DNA from: Chitinophaga sp.
Lineage (GTDB): Bacteria; Bacteroidota; Bacteroidia; Chitinophagales; Chitinophagaceae
Direction: 5' to 3'
DNA length: 64,000 nucleotides
NCBI RefSeq assembly: GCF_039596155.1
Contig: NZ_JBCNKF010000011.1
Coordinates: 29,642 to 93,641 of the forward strand
In this document: in pieces, positions 30,516 through 49,574 of the stretch
Layout: each line of letters opens with the position of its first letter
Position numbering within the stretch: the stretch's first letter is position 1
Made by a program: the position numbers and the translations under genes
Notes under the pieces: generated by a model
Database searches by the model: none
The model's input: the letters and a program-made list of their open reading frames with translations, nothing else
Told to the model about the DNA's origin: nothing

Positions 30516-32577
<2,062 letters not shown>

Positions 32578-32581: not shown

Positions 32582-32624
32582 GCAGGGAGTGATCACCGGT
32601 GTCCTGCATACCGGTGCTCCCTGC
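32582..32624 (+). terminator. Stem-loop at the end of the xylan PUL
   Basis: gcagggag/ctccctgc outer stem and caccggt/accggtg inner stem right after the esterase stop; no strong U tract. Confidence 0.45.
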
Positions 32625-32748: not shown

Positions 32749-33297
32749 TTGGACAGTACCAATCATAATAAAGCATCAAAAGCCGCTTTCAAAGCAGTGT
32801 ACGATAAATACTGGGAAGATCTGTTTCAGGCTGCCTACAAGCGTACCCGCCATGCAGCAGATGCCAGCGACCTCGTCCAGGATCTGTTTATCTCTCTCTG
32901 GGATCACCCGGAACGGCTGCAGCAGGAAGAGGATCTGGGAGCATATCTCTTTGTTGCACTCAGGAACAAAATTTTCAACTATTTCGAAAAAAAGACGGTG
33001 CGCCTGAATTATCTCCTGGCGCAGCCATTTAAACCTGTAGAATCAGAGGAAGCCATTTTCAGCAATATTCGCACCCGCGAAATAAAGAACTGTGTAGCGG
33101 CTGCCATCTCTGCCATGCCCCCCCGTATGAAAGAAATATATATCCTCAGCCGTGAACAGCACCTGTCTATTGCTGAAATAGCCGGACTACTGGGTATATC
33201 TCCCCAAACGGTTAAAAATCAATTGCATACGGCCCTTGGAAAAATCCGCACCCAGCTGAACGACAACGGTCTTTCGGCTTTTTCCATTTTTTTTTAG
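32749..33297 (+). CDS. ECF sigma-70 factor (FecI-like, Bacteroidota type)
   Basis: AFKAVYDKYW, DLVQDLFISLW, AYLFVALRNK, region 4 MPPRMKEIYILSREQHLSIAEIAGLLGISPQTVKNQL. TTG start is uncertain. Confidence 0.92.
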   Translation: MDSTNHNKASKAAFKAVYDKYWEDLFQAAYKRTRHAADASDLVQDLFISLWDHPERLQQEEDLGAYLFVALRNKIFNYFEKKTVRLNYLLAQPFKPVESEEAIFSNIRTREIKNCVAAAISAMPPRMKEIYILSREQHLSIAEIAGLLGISPQTVKNQLHTALGKIRTQLNDNGLSAFSIFF

Positions 33298-33357
33298 CTA
33301 CTTATAGTACTACCTGATTAGTTACCTGTTCTTGTATATAAACAGGCATACTACACC

Positions 33358-34476
33358 GTGAATGCAACACCAAAGAATATATCTGAGCTATTAAAAAAAT
33401 ACCGTACCGGCAAAGCTACTCCGGAGGAAAGCGCATTGCTGGAAGCATGGTACCATGCCCTGGAGTATGATACCACGATGTTTACAGATGAGGAGCTGGT
33501 GCGGCAAATGCAGGCAGAGGGTTGGGAGAAAATCAGGAAAAGAACGCCTGTTGTACGCCTGGTGGGGCGTTACTGGATGGGTATGACGGCAGCCGTATTG
33601 CTGTTGCTTGCCGGGGTTTTCTATTACAATATGCAAAGAAAACCTGTTGTTCCCGTTTATGCCGTCATTCAACCGGCCAGTGATAAGGCTACGCTGACAC
33701 TCTCCAATGGCCGGCAGATCATACTGGAAGATGCAGATAGCGGAATGATAGCAGAACAGAATGGCAGCCAGGTAGTGAAGCAGCCAAACGGGCAGTTGAC
33801 CTATCTTAAGCACAATGATGATCACTTACCAAACGTATATAATACATTGACTACGCCCCGCGGAGGTCAGTATAAAATAGTGCTGCCTGATGGTACAGTG
33901 GTGTGGATGAATTCAGCCTCTTCGTTAACTTATCCGACAGCTTTCAATGACCATGAGAGGATCGTGAAACTGAGTGGAGAAGCCTATTTTGAAGTGGCTC
34001 CCCGCGCTGCACAACCTTTTAAGGTGCAGGTAGATCAGACGATTGTGGATGTGTTAGGAACAGCCTTTAACATTCATGCATATGCAGATGAACCGGCTGT
34101 AACAACGACCCTTGTAACAGGCAGTGTACGGGTAACGCACACGATGGCTGCAGGTAATAAATCAGCGCAACTGGTGCCGGGACAGCAGGCCATTGGCGCG
34201 GCCACTTACCTGGTAACCAGGAAAGCTAATATGCGCCAGGTATTGTCATGGAAGAACGGACTTTTCATTTTTGAAGATCGTAAGCTCATCGATGTACTCC
34301 GTGAAATATCACGCTGGTACGATATAGATATTGATATGCAGGCAGGGGACAATGATACGCGTTATGGCGGTGTCATTAACAGGAACAGCCCGCTGCCAAA
34401 AGTCTTAGAACTGCTGGAAAGCAATGGAATCAGACATTTTAAAATAGAAGGAAGAAAAGTGATTGTTCTTCCATAA
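33358..34476 (+). CDS. FecR family anti-sigma factor
   Basis: TM helix; TLTTPRGGQYKIVLPDGTVVWMNSASSLTYP; LSGEAYFEV; VLGTAFNI; WKNGLFIF. Confidence 0.95.
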   Translation: MNATPKNISELLKKYRTGKATPEESALLEAWYHALEYDTTMFTDEELVRQMQAEGWEKIRKRTPVVRLVGRYWMGMTAAVLLLLAGVFYYNMQRKPVVPVYAVIQPASDKATLTLSNGRQIILEDADSGMIAEQNGSQVVKQPNGQLTYLKHNDDHLPNVYNTLTTPRGGQYKIVLPDGTVVWMNSASSLTYPTAFNDHERIVKLSGEAYFEVAPRAAQPFKVQVDQTIVDVLGTAFNIHAYADEPAVTTTLVTGSVRVTHTMAAGNKSAQLVPGQQAIGAATYLVTRKANMRQVLSWKNGLFIFEDRKLIDVLREISRWYDIDIDMQAGDNDTRYGGVINRNSPLPKVLELLESNGIRHFKIEGRKVIVLP

Positions 34477-34564
34477 ATCAACCAACCGCTTGTATTTGTA
34501 AACAATTGCCTATGATGTAAAGGGGACTTACAATGATGTAAAAAGAAATCAATCAAAATCAACA

Positions 34565-34639
34565 ATGAAACAGTATGCCATCCTTATAAAGGATAAGGAA
34601 TGCTATTGCTGTAGCCACCAGAAATTATTGCTTTTATGA
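34565..34639 (+). other. 24-codon upstream ORF overlapping the susC start (ATGA)
   Basis: Reads MKQYAILIKDKECYCCSHQKLLLL*; its TGA overlaps the susC ATG at 34636. Confidence 0.4.
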
Positions 34640-37600
34640 AACTTTCTACCTTACTTATCACCCTGGGGTGTATGCTGATTGCTGTAGCAGCATTATCACA
34701 GAAGGTGACGCTTTCTGTAAAAAAGCAACCTCTGCATGAGGTGATCAATGAAATTGCTGCCCAGACAGGGGTGAACATGATCTATAACATGGAGCAGCTG
34801 CGGAGTGCGGCACCTGTAACGGTCAATTTAAAACAGGCATCACTTGACGAAGCGCTGAAAGCCATCTTTAAAAACCAGCCTTTTAGTTATGAATTAAGAG
34901 ATGGAACGGTCGTCGTTATCCGGCCGAAGAATGGAATTGTTGTAGCCGTGCCGGTTCCTAATGGGAGTGAAACAGCCATGGACTTTCTCGATGTCAGCGT
35001 AAGAGCGGTTGATGAGCGAAACAGGCCTGTTCCTAATGTGACTGTAAGTATTAAATCAAGGCAGGAGATCCTGATCACCGATGCGAACGGCCTCGCATTG
35101 CTGAGGAAAGTCTTGCCGGGTACCTTAGTCACCTTTACCAGCATTGGCTATGAAGAACAGGTATTACCTGTGACACCTGGCATGCAGGAACTGGTCGTGC
35201 GCATGAAGCAGAAGATCAGCCAGCTAAGCACGCTGGAAATCAGTACAGGGATATCTTCGCGTAAGCAGGAAAGTTTTACCGGGTCTGCCACTGTGTTCAC
35301 TGGTCAGCAACTAAAGACAACCGGCAACAGGAATGTACTGGAAAGCCTGAAAAGCCTGGATCCTTCGTTTGTAAAAGTGACCAATAACCTGGCAGGCAGT
35401 AATCCGAATAAACTCCCCAACTTTGAAATAAGAGGCAGAACCAGTATCAGTACTATCAACCTGAACGACCAGTTTAATGCTGATCCTAACCAGCCTTTAT
35501 TTATCCTGGATGGTTTTGAAACCACCCTGCAGGCCATCTATGACCTGGATATGAACCGGGTGGCTACCATTACAATTTTAAAGGATGCGGCGTCGACAGC
35601 ATTGTATGGTTCCAAGGCAGCAAACGGTGTTGTCGTAGTGGAAACAAAGCGTCCTAAACCCGGTAAATTGCAGTTGAGCTATACAGGCGATTTTTCTGCA
35701 GATATACCGGACCTGAGCAGTTATAACCTGATGAATGCATCGGAGAAACTGCAGTTCGAAAAGTTGTCAGGCAGATACAGTAGTAAAGGTGAACAGGCGT
35801 GGCGGAATGAAGAAATTTATAATGCGCGGCTGGCTAATGTACAGCGGGGTATCAATACCTACTGGCTAAGTGAACCGGTAAGAACAGGCGTTTCGAACCG
35901 TCATTCTGTACAGATCACGGGCGGTAATACTGACCTGATGATGAATGCAGGTTTTGTGTACGGCATGCAGGAAGGTGCTATGAAAGGCTCTAATCGTGAA
36001 AACTGGAGTGCAAATCTCAACCTTACTTATCGCAGGGGTAATGTGAATATATCAAACCTGTTCACTGTAAATGGAAATGATGCACATGAATCACCGTATG
36101 GTTCTTTTGCTACATATGCAAAAGCAATTCCCTATTACAGCAAGAAAAATGCGGATGGTACGATCCCCAGGTACCTGGATCCTTTATACGATACTACATT
36201 GATCAACCCCTTGTACGATGCTTCACTTTACAGCAGGAATGAAACCTCGCAGTTCAGTTTTCAGAACAACCTGCAGGCAATTGTGACACTTTCGCCTGAC
36301 TTACGGTTACAGGGAGGATTGTTACTTGGAAAAGGCAATAGTAACGGCATTGTATTTATTCCACCCGATAACTCCGCATTTGTAACACTGCCGGCCAATC
36401 AAAAGGGAAATTATATCAATACCCGTCAGGAAAACAGCCGGTATAACGGTAACCTGATGCTGACCTACTCGAAGGTGACCAACCAACATTCATTCACTGT
36501 AATGGTAAGAGGGGAGGTACAGCAGGCGACAGCATCCAGTGTTGGATTTACGGCGGTGGGTTTTCCTTATGGAACAGATGGCAGTCCTGAATTTGCCTAT
36601 GGTTTCCTGCCTTACAGCACACCACAATCCAGTACTGTTACCAGCAGAAGTGTAGGTTTTCTTTCAAGCCTGAACTATGTATATGATCAGCGTTTCATGT
36701 TCGATGGTGTGTATAGATTGGATGGTAGCAGCGTCTTTGGCAGTGACCGTCAGTTCAAACCATTTTTGTCAGCGGGCATGGGCTGGAACCTTCATCACGA
36801 ATCCTTTATACGGGATATAGAATGGATCAGTCTTTTAAAGCTGAGAGGGAATATTGGCTATACCGGCAACCAGAACCTGGGCAGCTTTAGTTCCATATCC
36901 CTGTACAGTTATAATGCGGGGAATGTAAACAATTTTGGACAGGGGCTTAACCTGGCATCATTGGGCAACCCGGGACTGGATTGGCAAAAAACACTGCAGG
37001 CCAGTTATGGTGTTGACTTTGCCATGTGGAATAACCGGGTAAGTGGCTCGCTGGAATATTATAATAAAAGAACGGATCCACTGGCAGTAGGAGCTGTTGG
37101 TACATTGCCATCATCAGCAGGTGTAAATGAAAACTATGTGATCAACCTGGGACACCTTACTACCAAAGGTTATAGTGTGAATGTACGGGTTTCTCCGGTG
37201 TACAATATGAAGGACCGCATTATCTGGACTGTAGGGGTAATGGGTAACAGGAATGTAAGTACATATGGTGGTTTCAATAACAGGCTGGCAGAATTGAATA
37301 AAGCAGAACTGGCAGCGAAGGGATTGAGCAGGTACTACGACGGTTATAGTCCCGACGATATGTGGGCTGTAAAATCACGCGGAGTGGATCCGGCCACCGG
37401 TCAGGAAGTATATGAGAAGAAGAATGGTACGCTGACTTTTGATTATGATCCTGCTGATATCGTAAAAGTAGGTAATACCCGGCCTGTGGCGGAAGGTAAT
37501 ATCAATACCAGCTTTGCCTGGAAAGACTTCACCTTCAATGCGGTCATACGGTATGAAATAGGTGGCTATGTTTTCAATGGTGCGCTGTTTAATAAGGTCG

Positions 37601-37941
37601 AGAACTTTTCCGCATTGGGTACTAACCAGAACCTTGACAAACGTGCTTTGTATGACCGTTGGCAGCAACCCGGTGATATCATGCCATTCATTGGTATCAA
37701 TAGCTTCTCGAATGGTGTCATGTCCTCCCGCTTTATTCAGAAAGACACTCATTTCACCGGGGAATCTTTCAGCCTGGCCTATCGTATCACACAGGGCTGG
37801 ATTAAAAAGCTACGGATGCAATCGCTGAACCTGAGTCTTTACATGAACGATATTTTCCGTATTGAGAGTATCCTCAGCGAAAGGGGCATTGATTATCCCT
37901 ATGCCCGTACCGTATCATTTAGTGTGAATGCATCCTTCTGA
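34636..37941 (+). CDS. SusC/RagA TonB-dependent receptor/transducer with N-terminal STN signalling domain
   Basis: KVTLSVKKQPLHEVINEIAAQTG (STN), plug RVATITILKDAASTALYGSKAANGVVVVET, C-terminal SVNASF. Confidence 0.95.
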   Translation: MKLSTLLITLGCMLIAVAALSQKVTLSVKKQPLHEVINEIAAQTGVNMIYNMEQLRSAAPVTVNLKQASLDEALKAIFKNQPFSYELRDGTVVVIRPKNGIVVAVPVPNGSETAMDFLDVSVRAVDERNRPVPNVTVSIKSRQEILITDANGLALLRKVLPGTLVTFTSIGYEEQVLPVTPGMQELVVRMKQKISQLSTLEISTGISSRKQESFTGSATVFTGQQLKTTGNRNVLESLKSLDPSFVKVTNNLAGSNPNKLPNFEIRGRTSISTINLNDQFNADPNQPLFILDGFETTLQAIYDLDMNRVATITILKDAASTALYGSKAANGVVVVETKRPKPGKLQLSYTGDFSADIPDLSSYNLMNASEKLQFEKLSGRYSSKGEQAWRNEEIYNARLANVQRGINTYWLSEPVRTGVSNRHSVQITGGNTDLMMNAGFVYGMQEGAMKGSNRENWSANLNLTYRRGNVNISNLFTVNGNDAHESPYGSFATYAKAIPYYSKKNADGTIPRYLDPLYDTTLINPLYDASLYSRNETSQFSFQNNLQAIVTLSPDLRLQGGLLLGKGNSNGIVFIPPDNSAFVTLPANQKGNYINTRQENSRYNGNLMLTYSKVTNQHSFTVMVRGEVQQATASSVGFTAVGFPYGTDGSPEFAYGFLPYSTPQSSTVTSRSVGFLSSLNYVYDQRFMFDGVYRLDGSSVFGSDRQFKPFLSAGMGWNLHHESFIRDIEWISLLKLRGNIGYTGNQNLGSFSSISLYSYNAGNVNNFGQGLNLASLGNPGLDWQKTLQASYGVDFAMWNNRVSGSLEYYNKRTDPLAVGAVGTLPSSAGVNENYVINLGHLTTKGYSVNVRVSPVYNMKDRIIWTVGVMGNRNVSTYGGFNNRLAELNKAELAAKGLSRYYDGYSPDDMWAVKSRGVDPATGQEVYEKKNGTLTFDYDPADIVKVGNTRPVAEGNINTSFAWKDFTFNAVIRYEIGGYVFNGALFNKVENFSALGTNQNLDKRALYDRWQQPGDIMPFIGINSFSNGVMSSRFIQKDTHFTGESFSLAYRITQGWIKKLRMQSLNLSLYMNDIFRIESILSERGIDYPYARTVSFSVNASF

Positions 37942-37946
37942 TAAAA

Positions 37947-39383
37947 ATGAATAGTATGTTACAGAAATATAGACTCTTATTATGCTGTTTTTTATTTACA
38001 GCGATCAGCAGTTGTAAAAACTACCTGGATGTTCAACCTAAAGGTGCTTACACCGCCGACCAGGTATTCAGCAATTCTTCTGCCATGCAACAGGCGTTGA
38101 ATGGTCTTTATATCAGCCTGGCAGATAGTACGCTATACGGCCAGTTTATGACGACTACTATCATTGAGATGCTGGGGCAGCGTTACCAGCCGCCCACCGG
38201 TACGGAGTCAGATAGCTGGTTCGTGGGGCAATTTGAAAATTACCAGTATTCGGATCCCAATGTACAGGCAGCCTTTGATGCACTGTGGAAAAAAGCATAT
38301 GGCACCATACTGGCCGCCAATGTATTTATAAAGAATGCCGGTGATGCTGTGAACAGGCATGTAGTAAGTGATAAAGAAGGGCAACAGTTGATAGGAGAGG
38401 CCATTGCAATCAGGGCTATGCTCCACTTCGACCTGCTTCGGTTATTCGGACCGGTGTATGCATTGAACCCGGAGGCGCAGGCGATTCCTTATTATTCCGG
38501 TACGGATGGCAATGCTCAACCTTTACTGAGTGCCAGCAAAGTAATGGAAAGGGTATTGTCAGATCTGAATACAGCAGCAGCAATGCTGTCTGCAGATCCT
38601 GTGATCACAGGTGGTGTTGTCAGCGTGAATGATTTCTATTATGGTTACCGCAATCAGCGATTGAACTACTATGCAGTGAAGGGATTAATGGCGCGCGCCT
38701 ACCTGTGGGCGGGGCAAAAAGACCAGGCGCATAAACAGGCGCTGGAAGTACTCACGCAGGGAGAGAAGTGGTTTCCCTGGACAGATCCGCAGGCCATACA
38801 GCCGCTGCAGGATAATCCTGACCGTATCTTCTCAAATGAGATCCTCTTTAGTGTATATAATCCCAGGATGTATAATGCTTACTTCACGTTCTTTAGTCCG
38901 GACCTTGGAAATGATCATGTACTGACAGCTGACCCTGACAGATTGCAGGAAGTGTATGAAGGCATTGCCAACGATTACCGTTATAATGAGAATACATGGA
39001 GGGCTACTATTATCACCAAGAAGACCTTTTTCAAATTTGCTGATGTACCGGATATTTCCCGGCCATTCCGTTTCCTGCAGCCAGTGCTGCGCAAAACAGA
39101 GCTGTATTATATTCTGGCTGAAACAGAAACTTCTCCTGCACAGGCGTTGCAATACCTGAATACAGTGCGCTATAACCGGAATCTTGTTGACCTCACGGGC
39201 GATGCAGATATCACGGTGGAAACCGCGAAAGAGTATATGAAAGAATTCTGGGGAGAGGGTCAGCTGTTCTTCTATTACAAGCGAACAAACACCAGCTTCC
39301 TGCCTAGCGGAGAAAGCCCATATTATTCAGTAGTGCCTTCTTATGTAGTGCCATTACCGCTTTCAGAAACCACTCCCCGATAA
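37947..39383 (+). CDS. RagB/SusD family lipoprotein
   Basis: Lipobox ISSC; GEAIAIRAMLHFDLLRLFGP; RLNYYAVKGLMARAYL; KEFWGEGQLFFYYKR. Confidence 0.92.
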   Translation: MNSMLQKYRLLLCCFLFTAISSCKNYLDVQPKGAYTADQVFSNSSAMQQALNGLYISLADSTLYGQFMTTTIIEMLGQRYQPPTGTESDSWFVGQFENYQYSDPNVQAAFDALWKKAYGTILAANVFIKNAGDAVNRHVVSDKEGQQLIGEAIAIRAMLHFDLLRLFGPVYALNPEAQAIPYYSGTDGNAQPLLSASKVMERVLSDLNTAAAMLSADPVITGGVVSVNDFYYGYRNQRLNYYAVKGLMARAYLWAGQKDQAHKQALEVLTQGEKWFPWTDPQAIQPLQDNPDRIFSNEILFSVYNPRMYNAYFTFFSPDLGNDHVLTADPDRLQEVYEGIANDYRYNENTWRATIITKKTFFKFADVPDISRPFRFLQPVLRKTELYYILAETETSPAQALQYLNTVRYNRNLVDLTGDADITVETAKEYMKEFWGEGQLFFYYKRTNTSFLPSGESPYYSVVPSYVVPLPLSETTPR

Positions 39384-39401
39384 ACATCAAAATGAAGTAA
39401 C

Positions 39402-40190
39402 ATGCGAATAGCTTTTTATAAATTATTCATCGTATCGTTACCGGTATTACTGTTTGCCTGCAGGAAGGATAAACTGATGACTTATAATGCCGGTGACAAT
39501 ATTTATTTCCAGTATAAGGTGGGCGTGGATTCTGCCGCAAATCAGCAGGGGTTTATTGACGATACCCTGGATTACACCTTTGCTTACTCTCCGGACAATG
39601 TGAAGGATACACTATTCCCTATTCCTGTTGCAGTGACCGGCGAGCCTGTTAATTCCGACAGGGTGTATAAGGTGATTGTAGACCCTCATGCTTCAGCAGT
39701 AGAGGGAACGCATTATGAATGGCCTGCTTTAGTGATCCATGCGGGCCGTGTAAAAGACACGCTGTATATGCGTTTTAAGAGAACTGCTGATCTCCGTAAA
39801 GGAAAAGTGGAAATGACATTGCACCTGATGCCCAATGAAAATTTTGCGACGAACCTGCCATTTATACTGGCACATTCGATAGATACCATTGATGTGCTCC
39901 ATCTGCATATCTCATTGTCAGATGTACTTACTGCCGGTCCGGATTGGGATATATACTTTGCTTCTTACTTCGGCACTTTCAGCGAAAAGAAAATGCGACT
40001 GATGAATGAGGTCGTCGGATTGCCGCTTGACTTCTGGGCAACGTCCAGTATGAATAGCGCACAGGTAGCAGCGGCTACTTATTATGCAACAGCTATGGGG
40101 CGTTACCTGCGACAGCAGGCATTGAGCGGGAATGTCATCTACGAGGCAGACGGTATTACACCGATGAGAATGGGCGACGATTATCAATAA
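39402..40190 (+). CDS. DUF4843-like lipoprotein
   Basis: Lipobox LFAC; PVAVTG...DR.YKV...AVEGTHY; PDW...YFGTFSEKK; position directly after susD is typical of this family. Confidence 0.75.
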   Translation: MRIAFYKLFIVSLPVLLFACRKDKLMTYNAGDNIYFQYKVGVDSAANQQGFIDDTLDYTFAYSPDNVKDTLFPIPVAVTGEPVNSDRVYKVIVDPHASAVEGTHYEWPALVIHAGRVKDTLYMRFKRTADLRKGKVEMTLHLMPNENFATNLPFILAHSIDTIDVLHLHISLSDVLTAGPDWDIYFASYFGTFSEKKMRLMNEVVGLPLDFWATSSMNSAQVAAATYYATAMGRYLRQQALSGNVIYEADGITPMRMGDDYQ

Positions 40191-40204
40191 ATTAAAAGTA
40201 CTAC

Positions 40205-41695
40205 ATGCAAAAGAAACTGATATACCTGATAGCAATCATCGGCTGCTGCTTTGCTATGGGGTGTTATAAAGACAAAGGTAATTACGATCTGCATCCGATC
40301 AACGAAGTATCTGTCAGTGCATTTGATACTGTACAGGGATATGTGGCTTACTTTGGAGATACACTGCGTATCCAGCCGGTAATTACGGGATCGCTTGACA
40401 TGAGTGGCAGCGCTGTGTATGCTTACGAATGGTCAATACAGGATCCTACTTTGGTCACTACGGTGATTGGCACGGAAAAGAACCTGCAATATAAGATAGA
40501 CAAGCTGCCAGGGGACTATTCACTCCGTTTAAAAGTAACTGATAAGGCATCTGGAGTGCTGTATCATTTCAGGACGAATTTACAGGTAAGTACAGCAGTG
40601 TATGAGGGCTACCTGGTGCTGAATGACGTAAATGGTCAGTCGAGGCTGGATATGCTGAGCTATCAAAACAACACACAGCAGTTTACCCAGATTACAGATG
40701 TATTGGCAAAGATGGGTTCTTCGCTGCCGCCACAGGGAAAACCTGTCAACATCTTTTGTATGCAGACCAGTGTTAACGTAGCCGCAGATATCAACTCCTA
40801 CAAGATATACCTGTCTACCGCATCCGGGACGAATAATCTCAATTCTGAAACTTTTGATTATAAAGAAACCCAGAACATCAGTTATGAAATGATCGGAGAT
40901 GTGCCGGCAGGTTTTAAAGCGACAGGATTTTTTGGAACGTTACGTTTTGGCATCATTCCTACTATTTACATGGTGGCAGATAACAGTGTATTTATCCGTC
41001 AGAACGGATCCCCGGTATTTCCGTATGCACCTATAAATGCCTATGAAGGGGCCGCGACGACATTTAAAGCATCTCCCTACATCGCAGCAGATCCTAATTT
41101 TTGTATGATATTTAATATGGATAAGCGCACATTTACACGCACGGCATCATTCTCTGCTACCAGTGTGTACGACATGCCGGCGGCATTGAACTATCCAACC
41201 GGTAAGGACCTGGTGTATATGGAAATGTCGTATACCAGCGTGATCCATGCTATCCTGAAAGATCCTTCGTCCGGGCAGTATTCTATCATTCGTTTCTTCC
41301 TGGGGGCAACGCCCACCTATAACGAGGAGATCACCGCAACAGATTTCGACCAGGCCACTCATTTTGCCATGAGTCCTGATCGTGGATACCTTTTTTACAG
41401 TACCGGTGGAAAGGTCTACGAGTACGACCTTTCATTGAAGACCAGTAAGCTCATGCTGGACAAAGGAAATGAAGAAATAACCTACCTGGCTTTTCAGAAT
41501 TTCTTTTCCCGCACGTTCAACAATAACTATAGTAACTGGGCCAATCTGCTGACAGTAGGATCATACAATGCATCGTCCGCAAATGGTACACTGGAACAAT
41601 ATACAGTGCCGCCGGTAAACGGACAGCTTGTGAGAACCGCGCGATGGAGCGGATTCGGGAAGATCACGAGCATCGCCTACAGGGAAAGAAGATAA
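40205..41695 (+). CDS. PKD-like family lipoprotein with predicted beta-propeller C-terminal region
   Basis: Lipobox AMGC-YKDKGNYD; YAYEW...IGTEKNL...PGDYSLRLKVTD; C-terminal YLFYSTGGKVYEYD repeats. Confidence 0.8.
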   Translation: MQKKLIYLIAIIGCCFAMGCYKDKGNYDLHPINEVSVSAFDTVQGYVAYFGDTLRIQPVITGSLDMSGSAVYAYEWSIQDPTLVTTVIGTEKNLQYKIDKLPGDYSLRLKVTDKASGVLYHFRTNLQVSTAVYEGYLVLNDVNGQSRLDMLSYQNNTQQFTQITDVLAKMGSSLPPQGKPVNIFCMQTSVNVAADINSYKIYLSTASGTNNLNSETFDYKETQNISYEMIGDVPAGFKATGFFGTLRFGIIPTIYMVADNSVFIRQNGSPVFPYAPINAYEGAATTFKASPYIAADPNFCMIFNMDKRTFTRTASFSATSVYDMPAALNYPTGKDLVYMEMSYTSVIHAILKDPSSGQYSIIRFFLGATPTYNEEITATDFDQATHFAMSPDRGYLFYSTGGKVYEYDLSLKTSKLMLDKGNEEITYLAFQNFFSRTFNNNYSNWANLLTVGSYNASSANGTLEQYTVPPVNGQLVRTARWSGFGKITSIAYRERR

Positions 41696-41723
41696 TCATT
41701 TATAACAATCAATAAAACAGACA

Positions 41724-42656
41724 ATGCAACATACGATTGTCAGGATCGAACATTTGTCACACCGGTATACAACCGCCTGGGCTATCCGGGATATTAACAT
41801 GGAAATACCCAGCGTTGGTATCGTTGGCCTGCTTGGGTCTAATGGTGCGGGTAAAAGCACGACAATGAATATTCTTTGCGGAGCACTGAATCAAACGGAA
41901 GGCGAAGTCATTATTGACGGCATCAATATGCGGGAGCAGCCCCGGGAGGCTAAAAAAGCAATAGGGTTCCTGCCACAGCACCCCCCATTGTACATGGATC
42001 TTACCGTGGATGAATACCTGCATTATTGCGCAGGTCTCCGCCTGTTACCGAAAGAAAAAATGAAACAGGCGATAGACGAAGCGAAGGAACGCTGTGGCAT
42101 ATCACATTACAGTAAGCGGCTGATCGGTAATCTGTCTGGCGGGTACCGCCAGCGCGTAGGTATTGCCCAGGCAATTGTGCATAAACCCCGGCTCGTAGTA
42201 CTTGACGAACCCACCAACGGGCTTGATCCTAACCAGATCACAGAGGTAAGGGCCCTGATCAAAGATATTGCTGCAGAGAGGGCTGTGATCTTTTCTTCTC
42301 ACATATTATCGGAGGTCCAGGTATTGTGCAGGGATATTGTGATGATAGAAAGTGGAAGGATTGTATTTGCAGATACAATAGATGCATTTAACAATTATGT
42401 AGAGCCTCATAGTTTGCTGCTGCACCTGGAAAATCCACCTGCTGCTGCAGAACTGGAAAGGATCCCCGGCATCACGAAAGTTGACTTCCTGACGGAAAGA
42501 CAGGTACGCCTTTATTTCAGCGGTGACCAGGAGATTGCGGAACAGGTAGTAGCTACCAGTGTACAGCAAGGCTGGCGCCTGAGAGAGATCAGTCTGGACA
42601 AAACAGCACTGGACGAAATATTTAAACAGTTGTCTTCAAATAAAGCGAATAATTAA
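41724..42656 (+). CDS. ABC transporter ATP-binding protein (GldA-like, ABC-2 type)
   Basis: Walker A GSNGAGKST, signature LSGGYRQR, Walker B VVLDEPT, SSH switch. Confidence 0.95.
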   Translation: MQHTIVRIEHLSHRYTTAWAIRDINMEIPSVGIVGLLGSNGAGKSTTMNILCGALNQTEGEVIIDGINMREQPREAKKAIGFLPQHPPLYMDLTVDEYLHYCAGLRLLPKEKMKQAIDEAKERCGISHYSKRLIGNLSGGYRQRVGIAQAIVHKPRLVVLDEPTNGLDPNQITEVRALIKDIAAERAVIFSSHILSEVQVLCRDIVMIESGRIVFADTIDAFNNYVEPHSLLLHLENPPAAAELERIPGITKVDFLTERQVRLYFSGDQEIAEQVVATSVQQGWRLREISLDKTALDEIFKQLSSNKANN

Positions 42657-42661
42657 TCAGA

Positions 42662-45112
42662 ATGAAAACAATCATACGGGTAGCGAAAACAGAATTAAAG
42701 CTGTTATTTTTCTCACCTATCGCCTGGTTCCTTTTAATTGTATTTCTCATTCAATGTGGTGTCACGTATTTCAATGCCATGTCCGGTTTCGTCCGTTTGC
42801 AGGATATGGGCGATTTTGGAACGCGCTTCCTGGATACATTGACCTCCCGCGTGTTTTTAGGTAGAAGTGGATTGTTCGGCTCAGTTATGCAGAACCTGTT
42901 CCTGTACATTCCATTGCTGACAATGAGCCTGATCAGCAGGGAGGTCGGCAGCGGTACCATTAAATTATTGTATTCTTCACCTGTCAGCATTTACGAGATC
43001 GTATTAGGCAAGTACCTGGCGATGGTTGTATATAGTCTGCTGCTGGTGGCGGTGATAGGCATATTTGTAGTCTGTGGGGTATTCAATATTGTCCATGCAG
43101 AAACACCGATGTTGCTGTCTTCATTACTGGGCTTCTTCCTGCTGTTATGTGCATATGCAGCCATCGGTATTTTTATGAGCAGCCTTACCACTTACCAGGT
43201 AGTCGCTGCGATCTGTACCTTTGTAATGATTGGCATATTAAGTTATATTGGTTTACTGTGGCAACGTGTTGCTTTTGTGAGGGAACTGACCTACTTCCTC
43301 TCTATCAACGGACGTACTATGAAAATGCTGTCAGGGTTGATCACAACAAAAGACCTGGCGTATTTTCTGGTAATAGTGTATATATTTCTTGGTCTCACCA
43401 TTTACAAACTGAAAGCCGGTACAGAATCTAAAACCCCGATGGTGAAGACTATCAGGTATGCAGCCGTGATTGCTTCCGGATTGATGATCGGGTACATTGC
43501 TTCTATTCCTGCGCTGACTGGTTATTTTGATGTAACCTTCAATAAGAATCGTACCATTACTCCCCGTGTGCAAAAGATACTGGCGGACCTGGGAGATGCT
43601 CCGCTGGAAGTAACGGCCTATGCCAACCTGCTGGATCAAAACGGATTCATGGGCAACCCTGAGTATTATAATGATAATGAAGCGCACTGGGAGTTATATC
43701 GCCGTTTTAAGACGAACATCCATCTGAAGACTGTCGCTTATTACGACTCTGCCTATGGCAATTCAGTCATATTTAACGGTAGGGAAGGGCAGACGTTGAA
43801 GGAGCTGGCAGAACAATCGGCAAAGATGAATGATATGAAGCTCAGTTATTACATGACGCCGGAACAGATCCATAAAATCATTGATCTGCGGCCGGAAAGT
43901 AACCGGTATGTTATGCAGCTGCAGTGGAAAGGTAAAAAGACATTCCTGCGGGTTTTTAACGATCAGATGGTATGGCCGGGTGAAACGGAGGTAGCAGCTG
44001 CATTAAAAAGATTACAGGATGCAAAGGTGCCGGTGATTGGATTTCTGACAGGCGACCTGGAAAGGGACATAGATAAGATGGGAGATCGTGACTATAAGGG
44101 GCTGGCGAATCTCAATTCCTTCAGGAACTCATTGGTCAACCAGGGCTTTGATGTACAGACCATCTCACTTGAAAAAGACGAAATTCCTGCCAGTTTTGCT
44201 GCGCTGGTACTGGCAGATCCCAGGATTGAACTAACGCCTGCGGCTGTTTCAAAAATTCAGCAGTACATCAGCAATGGTGGGAATATGTTTATTGCCGGGG
44301 AGCCGGGCCGGCAACAGTTACTGAATCCGCTGCTGGCCCAGATAGGTATCCGGCTGGAAGGAACAGTATTGCAGGAGGATCCGGATGATTCACCGGAAAA
44401 GATACTATGTACAGCAACTCCGTTTTCCGTAGATCTGTACAAACCAATGGAAAAGATGATAGCAGACAGTATGTTGCTGCGTATGCAAGGTGCTACTGCT
44501 GTTAACTATGAGCAGGCCAGTGGTTTTACTGTCCATCCGTTGCAATTGTCCGATGCCAGGAAATCCTGGAAAAGGGTAAAGCCGGTAGATCCTGAGATGC
44601 TCATCAATGGAGCCGCAGGACCGGTATCAATGGGAGGTGATGTAGTAGCGGTGGTAGAGGAAGGAAACGGATCGTCCCATGCAAGATCATCTGCAGGAAA
44701 TAAGCCTGGAGAGCCCTCTTCGCGGCCTGGTGCTGACAGGGCGGCGGCAGGTACGGTGCATTTCTCACCTGAAGATGGCGATCAGAAAGGGCCGATAGTG
44801 ACGGTCGTGAGCATGGCCAGAAAAGTAAATGGAAAAGAACAGCGGATCGTCGTGGCAGGAGATGCAGATTTTCTTGATAACAAGGAACTGTTATCTCCGG
44901 GCAGGTCTAACTTCCTGTTTAGTACATCTATCTTCAGTTGGCTCAGTAATAATGAGTTCCCGATCGATACATCGAGACCGGATGCTAAAGACAAAAGGGT
45001 GACTATTAATTCCGACCAGCTCGAGATGTTACGTATCGTATTGATCTGGATATTACCTGCGCTGATATTTGCATTTGCGGCTATTCTACTGATCCGGCGT
45101 AAAAGAAAATAA
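42662..45112 (+). CDS. Fused ABC-2 permease / GldG-like auxiliary domain protein (GldF-GldG-like)
   Basis: N-terminal multi-TM ABC-2 region (PLLTMSLISRE..SGTIKLLYSSP), extracytoplasmic GldG-like region (IGFLTGDLER, RIVVAGDADF, FSWLS), C-terminal TM helix. Confidence 0.88.
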   Translation: MKTIIRVAKTELKLLFFSPIAWFLLIVFLIQCGVTYFNAMSGFVRLQDMGDFGTRFLDTLTSRVFLGRSGLFGSVMQNLFLYIPLLTMSLISREVGSGTIKLLYSSPVSIYEIVLGKYLAMVVYSLLLVAVIGIFVVCGVFNIVHAETPMLLSSLLGFFLLLCAYAAIGIFMSSLTTYQVVAAICTFVMIGILSYIGLLWQRVAFVRELTYFLSINGRTMKMLSGLITTKDLAYFLVIVYIFLGLTIYKLKAGTESKTPMVKTIRYAAVIASGLMIGYIASIPALTGYFDVTFNKNRTITPRVQKILADLGDAPLEVTAYANLLDQNGFMGNPEYYNDNEAHWELYRRFKTNIHLKTVAYYDSAYGNSVIFNGREGQTLKELAEQSAKMNDMKLSYYMTPEQIHKIIDLRPESNRYVMQLQWKGKKTFLRVFNDQMVWPGETEVAAALKRLQDAKVPVIGFLTGDLERDIDKMGDRDYKGLANLNSFRNSLVNQGFDVQTISLEKDEIPASFAALVLADPRIELTPAAVSKIQQYISNGGNMFIAGEPGRQQLLNPLLAQIGIRLEGTVLQEDPDDSPEKILCTATPFSVDLYKPMEKMIADSMLLRMQGATAVNYEQASGFTVHPLQLSDARKSWKRVKPVDPEMLINGAAGPVSMGGDVVAVVEEGNGSSHARSSAGNKPGEPSSRPGADRAAAGTVHFSPEDGDQKGPIVTVVSMARKVNGKEQRIVVAGDADFLDNKELLSPGRSNFLFSTSIFSWLSNNEFPIDTSRPDAKDKRVTINSDQLEMLRIVLIWILPALIFAFAAILLIRRKRK

Positions 45113-45113
45113 G

Positions 45114-46415
45114 ATGGTATTTAATACGGACAAACAAACCCGTGACGATCTGAAGATACTGGGAAGACAGGGGAGCGATGCCATATCGAATTTATTCCAG
45201 CGCTGTGTTACCCGTGGGGGAGCAGCTATGCTGGAAGAGATGTTCCTGTATCCACTGTCAGATGAAAGAGCTATTAACCGGCGAAGCTGTATGATCCGGT
45301 ATTTTTCATCGAAAGGCGAACGTTTTCCATTTAGTGTAGCGTTATTCGATCCGGTAGAAGCTTATCTGGCTAATACAGATAAACGCTCACTGTTAGCAGA
45401 CCGGACCAATTCAGTCAGCGACCGCATCGGAAGGCTGGTGGGCAATGACGTGGAAGCGCAACAACTTTACCAGGGACTGGAATCCCTGGTAAAGTTGCTG
45501 AAGGAAGTGAAAAGGTTTGTCGAACAACCGGGCGATACATACGGTGAAGAGGCGGCTATCCTGGCAATCCTGTCACATCCTGACCTTACTCCCGTTTTTG
45601 CAACGGGGCAGCCGGGTATATCAGCCTGTGATGAGTTGCTGCGTTTTCACCACCGGGAGGCCATGTTGCAGCTGTTACGACATCTTTACCTGCTGGATGT
45701 ATACATTGCTGTCGGGATAGTAGCGAGAGAAAGAAATCTTTGTTTTGCAACTGCTTTACCGGGTGAGGAGGCAACACTTTTACTAGAAGGCGTGTATCAT
45801 CCACAGTTGAAAAACGCGGTTCCCAACCAGCTGGATATGAAGGCAGACAGTAATCTTGTATTCCTGACGGGAGCGAATATGGCGGGTAAGTCTACATTCA
45901 TGAAGTCGGTTTGTATTGCGGTATACATGGCGCATATGGGATTTCCGGTGGCAGCAGCAGCCATGCAATTCAGCGTGCTGGACGGAATTTATACCACCAT
46001 TAACCTGCCGGATAACCTGGGTATGGGCGCCAGCCATTTTTATGCAGAGGTATTGCGGGTAAAAAAGATAGCACGGGCATTGCAACAGCAGCAACGGTTG
46101 CTGGTCGTTTTTGATGAACTGTTCAGGGGAACAAATGTAAAAGATGCCTGCGATGCGACAATAGCCATAGTAGGAGGATTTGCAGCGAAGCAGCGTAGCC
46201 TTTTCATCATCAGTACGCATATTATGGAGGCAGGAGAGGTGCTGCAGAAGAAGTGTCCTTCCATACAATTTTTGTTTATGCCGACGACAATGCGGGATAA
46301 TAAACCTGTATATAGTTATAAGGCATCGCCCGGTATCAGCGAAGATCGTCATGGAATGGTGATCATACGAAACGAGGGCATACTGGATTTACTGCGCAAC
46401 GGTAAAAAGAAATAG
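45114..46415 (+). CDS. Short MutS-like ATPase A (partial domain III plus domain V; no mismatch-binding or Smr domain)
   Basis: 433 aa; TRGGAAMLEEMFLYPLSD (domain III start), TGANMAGKSTFMKS, VVFDELFRGTN, IISTH. Confidence 0.88.
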   Translation: MVFNTDKQTRDDLKILGRQGSDAISNLFQRCVTRGGAAMLEEMFLYPLSDERAINRRSCMIRYFSSKGERFPFSVALFDPVEAYLANTDKRSLLADRTNSVSDRIGRLVGNDVEAQQLYQGLESLVKLLKEVKRFVEQPGDTYGEEAAILAILSHPDLTPVFATGQPGISACDELLRFHHREAMLQLLRHLYLLDVYIAVGIVARERNLCFATALPGEEATLLLEGVYHPQLKNAVPNQLDMKADSNLVFLTGANMAGKSTFMKSVCIAVYMAHMGFPVAAAAMQFSVLDGIYTTINLPDNLGMGASHFYAEVLRVKKIARALQQQQRLLVVFDELFRGTNVKDACDATIAIVGGFAAKQRSLFIISTHIMEAGEVLQKKCPSIQFLFMPTTMRDNKPVYSYKASPGISEDRHGMVIIRNEGILDLLRNGKKK

Positions 46416-46416
46416 G

Positions 46417-47712
46417 ATGAAATTCATAATAGACAATCACACGCTGGAAGACTTAAACCTGTTAGGGAAATTTAAACCTAATTCGATATTCAGCATTTTC
46501 AACAGGGTAAAGACAGCAGGAGGAGAGCGCCTGCTGGAAAAGTACTTTAAGGAGCCATTGACAGATCCGGCTGCCATAAACAGCCGAAGTGGTATGTTTC
46601 AATATTTCGCGGAGAAACAGTTGCGATTCAGTTTCGAAGGTATAGAAGAGATGCTGCAATATATGGCCCTTCCGGGAGCATCTTCGTTGCCACTTGCGAT
46701 AGCGGGAATGGTGAAAAATAAGCTGCTTAAGAGCCTGGTGCATGACGACAGGTATGATAAGGCAGACCAGGGGCTTCGTGCCACTATATCGTGTCTGAAT
46801 GCCGTTAAGTCTTTTTTGCCTTTGCTTTCAGGTTATCCGCAGCCTGAGCAGCTGCAGGAGGTGCAGCAATTATTGCAGCAGGATCGTTTAAAATGGCTGC
46901 AGGATGTGTTGCCATCAAAACTGCCTGCGCGCTGTCACTATCTGATGCACCATGTATTCAGGCATGAGATAGAAAATCTCATATCGTTATTGTACTACTG
47001 GGACGTGATGATGGCAGTAGCGGGCGTAGCACGTGACAGGGGATTCTTTTTTGCCCGGGCATTACCGGCGGAGGCACATGCATTTAAAAGTTCCGGTATC
47101 AGTCATCCGGCGCTGAGCAATGCGACGGCTAATCCTATTGCTGTTGATTCCCGGCAGCATTTGCTCTTCCTCACCGGAGCAAACATGGCAGGTAAATCTA
47201 CATTGATGAAGTCCTTTGGTATAGCGGTTTACCTGGCACACCTGGGTTTTCCTGTAGCGGCCAGGGAGCTGGAATTTTCGGTGATGGAGGGATTATATAC
47301 TTCCATCAATTTACCTGATAATCTGGCACAGGGATACAGTCATTTTTATGCGGAGGTACTCAGGGTGAAGAAGGTGGCAGAAGACGTGAGCAAAGGACAT
47401 CACCTGGTGGTGATCTTTGATGAGCTTTTTAAAGGAACAAATGTAAAGGATGCATATGATGCCACGCTGGAAGTAACAAAGGCATTTGGTGAATATGAGA
47501 ATAGTTTCTTTATGATCTCCACCCATATATTAGAAGTGGCAGATGCATTGGTGGAGAGTAATACGCCGGCAACCTTTTTGTACCTGCCTACCATCATGAA
47601 CGGTGCGGTGCCTGAATATACTTACAGGCTTACCCCGGGAGTGACGAATGATAGGCAGGGAATGGCAATAATAGAGAATGAAGGAATATTGGAAATGCTG
47701 GAGTTGAAGTGA
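46417..47712 (+). CDS. Short MutS-like ATPase B (paralogue of A)
   Basis: 431 aa; KTAGGERLLEKYFKEPLTD, TGANMAGKSTLMKS, VIFDELFKGTN, MISTH. Confidence 0.88.
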   Translation: MKFIIDNHTLEDLNLLGKFKPNSIFSIFNRVKTAGGERLLEKYFKEPLTDPAAINSRSGMFQYFAEKQLRFSFEGIEEMLQYMALPGASSLPLAIAGMVKNKLLKSLVHDDRYDKADQGLRATISCLNAVKSFLPLLSGYPQPEQLQEVQQLLQQDRLKWLQDVLPSKLPARCHYLMHHVFRHEIENLISLLYYWDVMMAVAGVARDRGFFFARALPAEAHAFKSSGISHPALSNATANPIAVDSRQHLLFLTGANMAGKSTLMKSFGIAVYLAHLGFPVAARELEFSVMEGLYTSINLPDNLAQGYSHFYAEVLRVKKVAEDVSKGHHLVVIFDELFKGTNVKDAYDATLEVTKAFGEYENSFFMISTHILEVADALVESNTPATFLYLPTIMNGAVPEYTYRLTPGVTNDRQGMAIIENEGILEMLELK

Positions 47713-47736
47713 AATCATTGACCAACCATTTTGTAA

Positions 47737-47770
47737 GCCCGGTAGTGTCTATTACCGGGTGTTTGTTTTG
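47737..47770 (+). terminator. Intrinsic terminator closing the susC-to-mutS-like operon
   Basis: cccggta-gtgtctat-taccggg followed by tgtttgtttt, 25 nt after the MutS-B stop. Confidence 0.6.
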
Positions 47771-47788: not shown

Positions 47789-48409
47789 TTATCTCGGTAT
47801 CAATGAATACCGGGCTTCATTAAAATAAAGATTGCCGGTGAGGTAGGAGGGATCCGCTTTGATTGTTTTTCTTTTTAGTTTGACCTTTTCTTCAATACAG
47901 TTTACCGTGCAATTGAAGAAGGAGACCCATTTTTTGTTTTCATAGCCAACAACATCTACATTATAGACACCACGTTGTTTTGTTGAATTGAAGTGATAAA
48001 AGATGGAATCACCTTTGTCTTCCAATTCGAATCTTTTAGCGGCGACATGAGCATTGATAGCTATCAGTCTGATCGCGCTTTCCGGAGAGGCGGTTACTGT
48101 TCTCAGTTCACGGTTAAATTTCTCTTTCCAGTTTTTTCCGTATTTGGCGACCAGTGGCCTTTCAGCAATCTTATTACATGCCTGCAGGCTATCCATTTCC
48201 TGTTGTGTGACGACACAACCCATTTCTTCCCTGTAAAATCCCCATTTTGTGCACAGGTTTGATTCTTCCGGGTAAGTGGGAAAGTGGGGCATCCCAAAGG
48301 TATAGAGCCTGATCAGGGTATCGGGTTGTTGGTGTCGGGTGATGGCTGTATGGTAGGTGCGGCACTGGCAGAGGGTGAATAGAATGAAAACCGGGATGAT
48401 ATATTTCAT
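47789..48409 (-). CDS. Hypothetical lipoprotein with FEKKY-like domain
   Basis: Signal with Cys (FTLCQC); WGFYREEMGCVV...CN...LVAKYGKNWKEKF motif resembles the FEKKY domain. Confidence 0.6.
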   Translation of the reverse strand: MKYIIPVFILFTLCQCRTYHTAITRHQQPDTLIRLYTFGMPHFPTYPEESNLCTKWGFYREEMGCVVTQQEMDSLQACNKIAERPLVAKYGKNWKEKFNRELRTVTASPESAIRLIAINAHVAAKRFELEDKGDSIFYHFNSTKQRGVYNVDVVGYENKKWVSFFNCTVNCIEEKVKLKRKTIKADPSYLTGNLYFNEARYSLIPR

Positions 48410-49537: not shown

Positions 49538-49574
49538 CGGAGGTTTTGCTTATAAACGGTAATCATAAAGAAAG

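Follow-up and report, generated by a model that had tools for sequence, protein, structure and literature searches.

We analysed a 64,000-nucleotide stretch of the genome of Chitinophaga sp. (contig NZ_JBCNKF010000011.1, positions 29,642 to 93,641 of the forward strand), below called the window. The ORF listing shows a cassette of ten open reading frames (ORFs) on the plus strand, at positions 32749-47712 of the window, which starts with a sigma factor gene and ends with two genes for shortened relatives of the DNA mismatch repair protein MutS. Domains of the ten proteins were assigned with Pfam and NCBIfam models and the cut-offs of these models.

The first gene (32749..33297) starts with TTG and encodes a sigma-70 factor of the extracytoplasmic function (ECF) type, 182 aa long, with domains Sigma70_r2 and r4_2 and a TIGR02985 score of 134.7 bits (cut-off 126.4). 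It is followed, after 60 nt, by the gene of a FecR-type anti-sigma factor of 372 aa (33358..34476). This protein has one transmembrane segment, seen in the sequence as a hydrophobic stretch at approximately residues 72-90, and periplasmic FecR (PF04773, 7.8e-18) and FecR_C (PF16344, 4e-16) domains. After a further 159 nt begins the gene of a SusC/RagA-family TonB-dependent transducer (34636..37941). It carries an N-terminal STN domain (PF07660, residues 47-97, E 4.1e-13) and a Plug domain, scores 493.7 bits with TIGR04056 (cut-off 368) and also contains the TIGR04057 signature. Its closest solved relatives in PDB are SusC homologues and RagA. The susD gene (37947..39383) lies 5 nt behind susC, so that the two form a SusC/RagA barrel and SusD pair. 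Its product, the lid of SusCD, is a lipoprotein (SusD-like_3, 3.1e-14; lipobox ISSC) that matches SusD structures in PDB. The STN barrel, the adjacent FecR protein with its FecR_C domain and the ECF sigma factor scoring above the TIGR02985 cut-off together provide the components of trans-envelope signalling.

Two further lipoprotein genes follow. One (39402..40190) encodes a variable accessory surface protein of the DUF4843 family (PF16132, 3e-21; lipobox LLFAC), for which no solved relative was found in PDB by sequence or profile. The other (40205..41695) encodes a PKD_2-family lipoprotein with an N-terminal PKD-like domain (PF16407, 2.4e-29; lipobox AMGC). In its C-terminal part, residues 391-479, the family profile gives weak WD40-type, beta-propeller-like matches.

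The next two genes encode an ATP-binding cassette (ABC) transporter of the ABC-2 type. The ATPase, AbcA (41724..42656), has a GldA/DrrA/ABCA-like nucleotide-binding domain (NBD; ABC_tran, 3.1e-33) and a DrrA-type C-terminal domain. The 816-aa permease, GldFG (42662..45112), is of the NosY/GldF type and is fused to a GldG-type periplasmic domain (PF12679, PF12698 and PF09822, ABC_transp_aux). The last two genes encode MutS-A (45114..46415, 433 aa) and its paralogue MutS-B (46417..47712, 431 aa), both of which contain the MutS_III and MutS_V domains only. From susC onward, the intergenic gaps are 5, 18, 14, 28, 5, 1 and 1 nt. The operon is closed by an intrinsic terminator (47737..47769, plus strand), which begins 25 nt past the mutS-B stop codon and consists of a 10-bp stem with 5 G-C pairs, a 4-nt loop and a T-rich tail.

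The gene order and strand, gaps, domain content and strong terminator are as described in the first-pass annotation of this region, which had been made from the sequence without database searches. Its observation that the cassette has no glycoside hydrolase, protease or sulfatase also stands: no domain of these kinds was found in the ten genes by the Pfam and NCBIfam models. Polysaccharide utilisation loci (PULs) have carbohydrate-active enzymes (CAZymes) alongside SusCD, and the ten genes include none.

The MutS-like pair and the ABC-2 transporter

MutS-A and MutS-B are 42% identical (BLASTP). Both sequences begin with the DxxTxxDL motif, which in MutS marks the beginning of domain III, and the mismatch-binding domain I and the connector domain II are absent from the sequences and from the Pfam assignments. 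No Smr nuclease domain was found in either protein. The scores with the MutS1 equivalog model are 131 and 111 bits (cut-off 480), and those with the MutS2 model TIGR01069 are 80.9 and 65.3 bits (cut-off 400). Since all equivalog cut-offs are missed, identification of the pair as canonical MutS1 or MutS2 was rejected. The ATPase motifs are intact, namely Walker A GANMAGKST, Walker B FDELF[RK]GTN, the signature-like SHFYAE and the STH histidine, and they are kept in at least 108 of 109 sequences of each paralogue. The MutS_V regions also match the NCBIfam model of KamC, the reactivase ATPase of lysine 5,6-aminomutase, at 1e-28 to 1e-30, which is below the cut-off of that model.

The A-type gene is the first one in 109 of 109 pairs, and the B-type gene is the second one in 101 of 109, which indicates that the duplication is old and the order fixed. 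Natural A-to-B fusions with a linker of approximately 10 residues form at least 120 protein clusters, found in Pedobacter, Sphingobacterium, Puia, Odoribacteraceae and Dinghuibacter. By the Rosetta-stone argument, these fusions suggest that MutS-A and MutS-B form a heterodimer.

No solved structure of the MutS-A/B type was found in PDB. The AlphaFold2 model of one A-B fusion (pLDDT 88.3, pTM 0.78) has MutS, MSH2 and MSH3 as its top Foldseek matches. Each half of the model consists of an all-helical domain III of approximately 200 residues, in which a helical tip of approximately 50 residues joins two long helices, followed by the ATPase. It has no beta strands between the lever helices, that is, no DNA clamp domain IV, and the net charge of the lever tips of MutS-A/B is about neutral, not basic. 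The family of the N-terminal domain is small and uniform, comprising 376 clusters at 50% identity with protein lengths of approximately 440 or 880 aa. No informative fusions of this domain to other domains were found in the family, beyond A-B fusions and fragments. Four proteins of 400-600 aa (P0412, P0425, P0430 and P0437) have an additional 115-158 residues before the MutS-A-type N-terminal domain, which may reflect either an artefact of gene calling or the gain of a domain.

According to this model, the pair is a MutS-derived dimer of ABC-type ATPases that, because the mismatch and clamp domains are absent, would be incapable of canonical mismatch recognition and of closing around DNA as canonical MutS does. 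Mismatch repair is thus an unlikely role for proteins of this type.

The two transporter proteins had been called GldA-like and GldF-GldG in the first-pass annotation. The resemblance holds at the family level. However, the curated cut-offs are widely missed, both by the ATPase with the GldA model TIGR03522 (268.9 bits, cut-off 402.6) and by the permease fusion with the GldF model TIGR03518 (74.6 bits, cut-off 288.5), and identity with true GldAFG orthologues was rejected. The solved structures nearest to the NBD of AbcA are ABCA4, ABCA1 and ABCA7; NosF and LptB are matched too. GldFG has no sequence relative in PDB. Its AlphaFold2 model (pLDDT 81.6) begins with six helices, followed by a seventh, and continues with a periplasmic alpha/beta domain of approximately 500 residues and a C-terminal anchor. 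In Foldseek searches with this model, the membrane part resembles NosY of NosDFY, PmtD, which exports phenol-soluble modulin (PSM) peptides, and ABCG2, and the periplasmic part resembles the N-terminal domain of IFT52 and OST48, neither of which is known to be an enzyme. These matches place AbcA-GldFG in the fold class ABC-2/type V, the members of which are typically exporters, extractors or mechanotransducers.

The same three families, an ABC ATPase, a NosY-like ABC-2 permease and a GldG-type domain resembling the IFT52 N-terminal domain, constitute GldA, GldF and GldG, the gliding-motility ABC transporter of Flavobacterium. The cassette proteins differ from them not only in scoring far under the GldA and GldF cut-offs, but also in the fusion of GldF with GldG, the location in a SusCD operon and the occurrence of several copies per genome.

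Conservation and variable genes of related cassettes

Related loci were collected in two pattern-seeded scans, which are not a census. The MutS-A-seeded scan of one genome per species produced 80 loci, the best MutS-A identity among them being 57%. They come from Chitinophaga, Puia, Pedobacter, Pseudoflavitalea, Solitalea, Butyricimonas, Odoribacter, Muribaculaceae, Rikenellaceae, Marinifilum, Flavivirga and others. The second scan, in which an alignment of GldFG was compared with metagenome contigs, also produced 80 loci and removes the bias of MutS seeding. The loci were annotated by tblastn with the ten window proteins and subsequent clustering of ORFs, and labels were taken from BLAST clusters and home-made hidden Markov models.

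In the MutS-seeded set, 64 loci have room for abcA-gldFG ahead of the MutS genes; 56 of them carry the two genes immediately 5' of the MutS genes, and in 7 more they are nearby in another order. Among 58 loci, 53 have susC and susD upstream and in the same orientation, and 36 have fecR upstream of susC. Among four apparent exceptions, three have sigma-fecR-susC-susD on the other side or in divergent orientation, and one (L059) has a sigma gene only. Seeding with GldFG gives a similar picture: the MutS pair is downstream of gldFG in 45 of 53 loci, susC and susD are upstream in 40 of 42, and fecR is upstream in 36 of 42. Of 78 SusC proteins encoded in cassettes, at least 65 have a detectable STN domain. 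Thus the linkage of ABC-2 and mutS-like genes to ECF/FecR-controlled SusCD loci across Bacteroidota, which the first-pass annotation had proposed as a check of its interpretation, is seen both from the MutS side and from the ABC side. The arrangement in these approximately 160 related loci is conserved far beyond what chance adjacency would give.

The constant part of the cassette consists of the ECF sigma factor, FecR, STN-SusC, SusD, the ABC-2 ATPase, the GldF-GldG fusion and, usually, MutS-A/B. Variants with the sigma, FecR, SusCD and ABC-2 genes and no MutS pair are L084, L086, L105, L122, L125, L141, L144 and L146.

The nearest orthologue of the window cassette (74% identity in MutS-A) has the eight genes susC to mutS-B in identical order. 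As the sequence of that locus begins within susC, the sigma and fecR genes are out of view. The genes downstream of the orthologous cassette differ from those in the window, which puts the operon end at the position of the window terminator.

The cassettes are present in 2-6 paralogous copies per genome. Six loci were found in one metagenome-assembled genome (MAG) of Chitinophagaceae, four in one MAG of Butyricimonas, and three each in two Butyricimonas isolates and one Flavivirga. One Pedobacter contig contains three fused MutS paralogues, and one Pseudobacter chromosome contains four GldFG paralogues. Tandem cassettes exist as well, for example L030.

The interval between susD and abcA is variable. 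Counted by cassette in both locus sets, it is empty in 59 cases, contains DUF4843 and/or PKD_2 genes in approximately 16, a DUF4397-like lipoprotein gene in 17 and a lipoprotein gene of another family in 9. DUF4843 or PKD genes occur in 12 of 58 MutS-seeded loci and in 2 of 42 GldFG-seeded loci, and the expectation that the linkage would be specific to the SusCD type of the window has to be dropped. Since the lipoproteins vary, the ABC/MutS module is tied to sigma/anti-sigma-controlled SusCD pairs generally. The DUF4843 and PKD_2 proteins might correspond to the two additional lipoproteins of the peptide-bound BT2261-2264 complex of B. thetaiotaomicron, but no confirmation of this was found and no argument is built on it. 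The paper on MAFF/BT2264 (PMC6080902) deals with a different locus, which has no ECF, ABC or MutS genes.

The genes behind the MutS pair differ between cassettes as well. A recurrent theme of these and other accessory genes is peptidases and thiol-disulfide oxidoreductases. An M16 peptidase of approximately 930 aa, with a signal peptide and the HxxEH motif, occurs 42 times. Its gene is immediately behind the MutS pair in 27 of 73 MutS-seeded loci; in the GldFG-seeded set, it is one of the next genes downstream in 17 of 53 loci. A TlpA-like periplasmic thiol-disulfide oxidoreductase of approximately 377 aa (DUF4369 and AhpC/TSA domains) forms a cluster of 12 and accounts for 8-9 of the 57 non-redundant unlabelled accessory genes. 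Met-zincins are found in Puia cassettes, a Muribaculaceae locus has two S9 peptidases directly 5' of abcA, and in other loci S41 and S8 peptidases are encoded between the lipoprotein gene and abcA. The same position is taken in one case by a 654-aa ORF with an HExxH-type motif, spotted by eye. Trypsin-like domains were also seen among the accessory genes. There are no glycoside hydrolase families among the 25 most frequent Pfam families of the accessory genes.

Because the accessory genes of the relatives are peptidase and disulfide reductase genes (M16, S9, S41, S8, Met-zincin and TlpA-like) and no CAZyme recurs, a peptide or protein is a likely ligand. This agrees with the earlier suggestion that the substrate is probably not a glycan. 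The cassette family is thus likely to target peptides or small proteins, and in many copies the substrate probably contains disulfides.

Some variations of the gene content were noted in particular genera. In Pedobacter-type cassettes (L008, L009, L012, L014, L015, L017, L020-L023, L028, L031, L073, L140 and L152), a second GldF-GldG fusion gene follows the M16 peptidase gene and is not accompanied by a second ATPase gene, which suggests a heterodimeric permease. Butyricimonas loci contain instead two tandem abcA-gldFG pairs ahead of one MutS pair. A four-helix membrane protein of approximately 126 aa, with weak similarity to cytochrome b561, recurs beside the cassette in the Butyricimonas loci L057, L060, L063 and L064, and thioredoxin-fold proteins of approximately 400 aa are encoded near it as well.

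Possible functions of the cassette

The preferred interpretation, to which we give an even chance, is that the locus encodes a ligand-induced envelope system for a proteinaceous substrate, being one copy of a conserved, paralogue-rich Bacteroidota cassette. Judging from the protein families and the lipoboxes, the ligand would be captured by surface lipoproteins, that is, SusD and, in the window copy, the DUF4843 and PKD_2 proteins. Ligand on STN-SusC would then signal through FecR to the ECF sigma factor, and the operon would be switched on. The architecture of such a relay is present, and induction is suggested by analogy with FecA/FecR/FecI and with ECF-linked PULs of Bacteroides. The claim of the first-pass annotation that the operon is inducible through the sigma factor is consistent with the STN domain, the FecR_C domain and the adjacency of the genes; these are arguments from architecture, and the control itself should be read as putative.

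The further steps would be as follows. SusCD, as expected of its family, would import the ligand into the periplasm at the expense of TonB-transduced energy. In many relatives, the periplasmic TlpA-like reductases and the M16, S9, S41, S8 or zincin peptidases encoded in the cassette may process it there; for the window copy, the processing enzymes would be encoded elsewhere. The inner-membrane step would be performed by the ABC-2 transporter, of the type V, NosY/PmtD/ABCA-like fold class, the permease of which is fused to a large and presumably non-catalytic GldG/IFT52-like scaffold. This transporter could expel or hand over ligand-derived material, or it could pass the energy of ATP to the periplasm. 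Finally, the MutS-A/B heterodimer, whose genes appear translationally coupled to those of the transporter, may be a cytoplasmic ATP-driven switch or handler.

A more specific proposal is tentative and may well prove wrong. It is that the MutS ATPase pair has been exapted from DNA repair as a dedicated cytoplasmic partner of the ABC-2 transporter. The pair could regulate or gate the transporter or handle its substrate, and the two would be parts of a sigma-controlled machine that is fed by SusCD and imports and dismantles peptides or small proteins. The loci would then form a new class of peptide and protein utilisation or detoxification loci, with thousands of copies across Bacteroidota. Coupling of the pair to the transporter had already been suggested in the first-pass annotation. 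As far as the genes are concerned, the linkage is indeed tight; a physical or functional coupling of the proteins may be surmised from it.

The import of peptides by a SusC/SusD-family pair has a precedent in the oligopeptide importer RagAB of Porphyromonas gingivalis; as noted above, a structure of RagA is matched by the window SusC. RagAB is distant in sequence (E ~1e-33). The window SusC has an STN domain, and its operon also contains the sigma, anti-sigma, ABC and MutS genes. The closest functional precedent would be the Fus systems, or protease-associated import systems (PAIS), represented by FusABCD of Pectobacterium and YddB-PqqL-YddA of E. coli. In them, a TonB-dependent importer is combined with an M16 protease of the periplasm and with an ABC transporter (PMC6793856); the text of that paper does not mention Bacteroidetes. 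Related cassettes likewise pair a TonB-dependent importer with a periplasmic M16 protease of approximately 930 aa and an ABC transporter. On the other hand, the window copy has no M16 gene and no FusB-like TonB gene, its barrel is of the SusC type with a SusD lid and not of the FusA/YddB type, and its ABC transporter is of the ABC-2/type V class with a GldG domain and not of the FusD/YddA type. Fus, in turn, has neither a MutS pair nor sigma/anti-sigma control. Since several features of membership are missing, the cassette may work like a Fus system, but would not be one.

Several observations speak against the import of a proteinaceous ligand under sigma control, or make the argument for it less direct. 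The 87 fecR-susC spacers were searched for a shared ECF promoter with gapped 4-mer pairs and hexamers, and no convincing -35/-10 pair was found; the output consisted of A-rich words and the moderately frequent AACCGG (32 of 87). A scan with the sigma-70 consensus gave matches at background level. The window copy has neither a peptidase nor a reductase, and the inference about its substrate is borrowed from paralogous cassettes, whose ligands may differ. An ABC-2/type V pump of the exporter or extractor type fits poorly into a simple pathway of import and consumption. Eight of 53 GldFG-seeded cassettes stop after gldFG and have no MutS pair; the pair is usual yet not essential to the core machine. 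Finally, since genes of the related loci were called simply as the longest ORFs, the counts are approximate.

The main rival explains the exporter-type pump better and the importer less well. It is that the cassette is a module that senses and neutralises antimicrobial or toxic peptides, such as cysteine-rich defensin-like peptides or bacteriocins. These would be sensed by the surface receptor, with induction of the operon, and then imported into the periplasm, reduced and cleaved; the ABC-2 pump would clear the inner membrane similarly to LanFEG or PmtCD, and the MutS pair would protect or reset a cytoplasmic target. We regard this as unlikely on balance, but as a possibility to be taken seriously. 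It accounts for an exporter-type pump within an import-type locus, the ATPase is nearest to DrrA, lantibiotic-protection and ABCA-type NBDs, and the permease fold matches the peptide-toxin exporter PmtD as well as NosY. The accessory enzymes are oligopeptidases by type (M16, S9) and disulfide reductases, and ECF sigma factors classically control envelope-stress and detoxification regulons. The likeness to NosDFY and PmtCD is one of fold class only: NosY and PmtD are matched by the permease and NosF and ABCA NBDs by the ATPase, with 14-17% identity, the periplasmic domain is of the GldG type, and no NosD, NosL, NosZ or PSM genes are present in the cassette. Against a neutralising module, import of a toxin through a TonB-dependent gate would be an unusual design for resistance, SusD lids and several surface lipoproteins typify nutrient capture, known defence and immunity models (PADLOC) are not matched, and the role of the MutS pair remains ad hoc. 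Likewise, the PADLOC search gave no reason to consider the cassette an anti-phage defence system, as the ABC ATPase had only generic P-loop matches and neither GldFG nor MutS-A/B nor the lipoproteins had a meaningful match.

A less probable explanation is piracy of a cofactor or metal, of the Fus/PAIS type. A small cysteine-rich metalloprotein would be imported and dismantled in the periplasm, its cofactor would be handled by the NosDFY-like ABC-2 machine, and the MutS pair would be chaperone-like. The sigma factor, anti-sigma factor and TonB-dependent transducer form the classic circuit of iron and haem uptake, TlpA-type reductases recur in the cassettes, and the permease resembles NosY of the copper-delivering NosDFY. 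The KamC matches of the MutS_V proteins (1e-28 to 1e-30, below the cut-off) point the same way, as does the parallel between a TonB-dependent transporter (TBDT), periplasmic M16 protease and ABC transporter in the cassettes and in Fus and YddB-PqqL-YddA (PMC6793856). Against this, no metal-binding or cofactor-related genes and no Fur boxes were seen in the cassettes, the window copy encodes neither the M16 peptidase nor the TlpA-like reductase, a counterpart of the TonB-like FusB is missing, the ABC transporter is of another type than FusD and YddA, and many paralogues per genome would be unusual for metal uptake.

The remaining explanations are each contradicted by features that were tested. 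It is improbable that the locus is an ordinary PUL that has its CAZymes at other loci and carries the ABC and MutS genes as passengers without a related function. Many Bacteroides PULs for host glycans do have this design of SusC/SusD with an ECF sigma and anti-sigma factor, and the window itself contains two true PULs nearby. Indeed, the cassette shares with ECF/anti-sigma-linked SusCD loci and FecA/FecR/FecI the STN barrel, FecR with FecR_C, the adjacent ECF sigma factor, the SusD lid and the additional surface lipoproteins. However, it differs from ECF-linked SusCD PULs in having no CAZymes, in its constant downstream genes, which encode the ABC-2 transporter and the MutS-derived pair, and in the enzymes of its relatives, which are peptidases and disulfide reductases. 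No CAZyme recurs in the approximately 160 related loci, whereas these enzymes do, and the ABC-2 and MutS genes trail susD at gaps of 1-28 nt and are conserved in searches from both directions.

Still less can be said for the MutS-like pair as a DNA-repair or DNA-processing factor, for example for imported DNA, which would make the cassette a system for uptake and handling of nucleic acids; we consider this very improbable. Its basis is the homology with the core and ATPase domains of MutS, and the earlier phylogenetic literature. Lin, Nei and Ma (2007) described the orphan subfamilies MutS3 and MutS4, short paralogues of MutS with no known function in which the ATPase domain and, in some cases, the core domain are retained. 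They noted that the genes of MutS4A and MutS4B are neighbours, the stop codon of one overlapping the start codon of the next (PMC2190696). They assumed a role of such paralogues in DNA metabolism and did not note a linkage to transporter or SusCD genes (PMC2190696). MutS-A/B resemble these proteins in being short adjacent paralogues, the comparison being by description only. What contradicts a role in handling of DNA is the absence of domains I, II and IV, the short, helical and non-basic lever tips, the failure to reach every MutS1 and MutS2 equivalog cut-off and the peptidase character of the accessory enzymes; moreover, the cassette contains no nuclease, Smr or MutL partner.

A secretory route through the SusC barrel, supplied by the ABC exporter, agrees with the exporter-type ABC fold and with the Myxococcus precedent (Oar/PopC) cited in the first-pass annotation, but it is hardly credible and nothing in the present data supports it. 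A plugged SusC with a SusD lid has the "pedal-bin" architecture of an importer, and the periplasmic peptidases of the relatives also point to import. Moreover, the ligand sensed by STN/FecR signalling is an external one, and the cassettes share no conserved gene for a candidate cargo.

Genomic setting and implications

A separate and complete PUL of the xylan type is located directly upstream of the cassette at 17416-32577 on the plus strand. It consists of genes for a hybrid two-component system (HTCS) sensor (1360 aa), a GH10 glycoside hydrolase, SusC, SusD, an unknown 415-aa protein, a GH62 glycoside hydrolase and a tandem esterase of 669 aa. Just 3' of the esterase stop codon there is a long imperfect hairpin without a T-run (32583-32624, GCAGGGAG..CACCGGT / ACCGGTG CTCCCTGC), which is probably a boundary or terminator that separates the xylan PUL from the sigma gene. 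A second PUL-like group at 4595-13664 contains genes for SusC (1027 aa), SusD and a GH31 protein on the minus strand. Beside it, on the plus strand, are a sulfatase gene (4595-6178) and then genes for a DUF6377 protein and a UvrD-like helicase.

Downstream of the cassette, the G+C content at 48000-54000 is 0.38-0.41, against a value of approximately 0.46. This block contains tandem paralogous GDSL lipase/acylhydrolase genes (48698-49537 and 49890-50729), a gene for an AraC-type regulator and an unannotated 462-aa ORF, and may be acquired DNA. A strain with approximately 99% identity was assembled from four public DNA runs labelled with the name of another organism, one contig being 51 kb long. 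It differs from the window by an in-frame GGC insertion in mutS-A (window position 45550) and a 2-nt deletion downstream of the operon (48416). The bacterium appears as a passenger in runs named for the other organism, and also in plant and soil metagenomes.

In the full-text literature, we found no description of the cassette, nor of MutS-like genes linked to SusCD or ABC-2 genes, and the first-pass annotation, which knew of no functional description, is borne out to this extent. The building blocks are of known kinds; it is their conserved combination, with a non-repair MutS pair, that is undescribed. The names in public records are generic, such as "MutS-related protein", "DNA mismatch repair protein", "Gldg family protein" and "ABC-2 type transport system permease". 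The cassette is also abundant, as protein searches produce more than 5,900 matches of the MutS type and more than 2,700 of the GldFG type. The carriers include the gut genera Butyricimonas and Odoribacter and soil- and plant-associated Chitinophagaceae and Pedobacter.

In the gut, soil and sea, SusCD loci provide Bacteroidota with their main routes of nutrient entry. To our knowledge, functional work on them has been nearly all about glycans. If the substrates of the cassette are peptides or small proteins, sigma-controlled SusCD systems would have a second large class of substrates. The GldG-type ABC transporters would obtain a testable function, and the database names of thousands of proteins would be corrected, because the proteins so named lack the mismatch and clamp domains and probably do not repair mismatches. 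The cassette is also a tractable case of a DNA-repair ATPase of the ABC type re-used for another job. Should the MutS pair indeed be a partner of the ABC-2 transporter, this would be the first role of the MutS fold in envelope transport.

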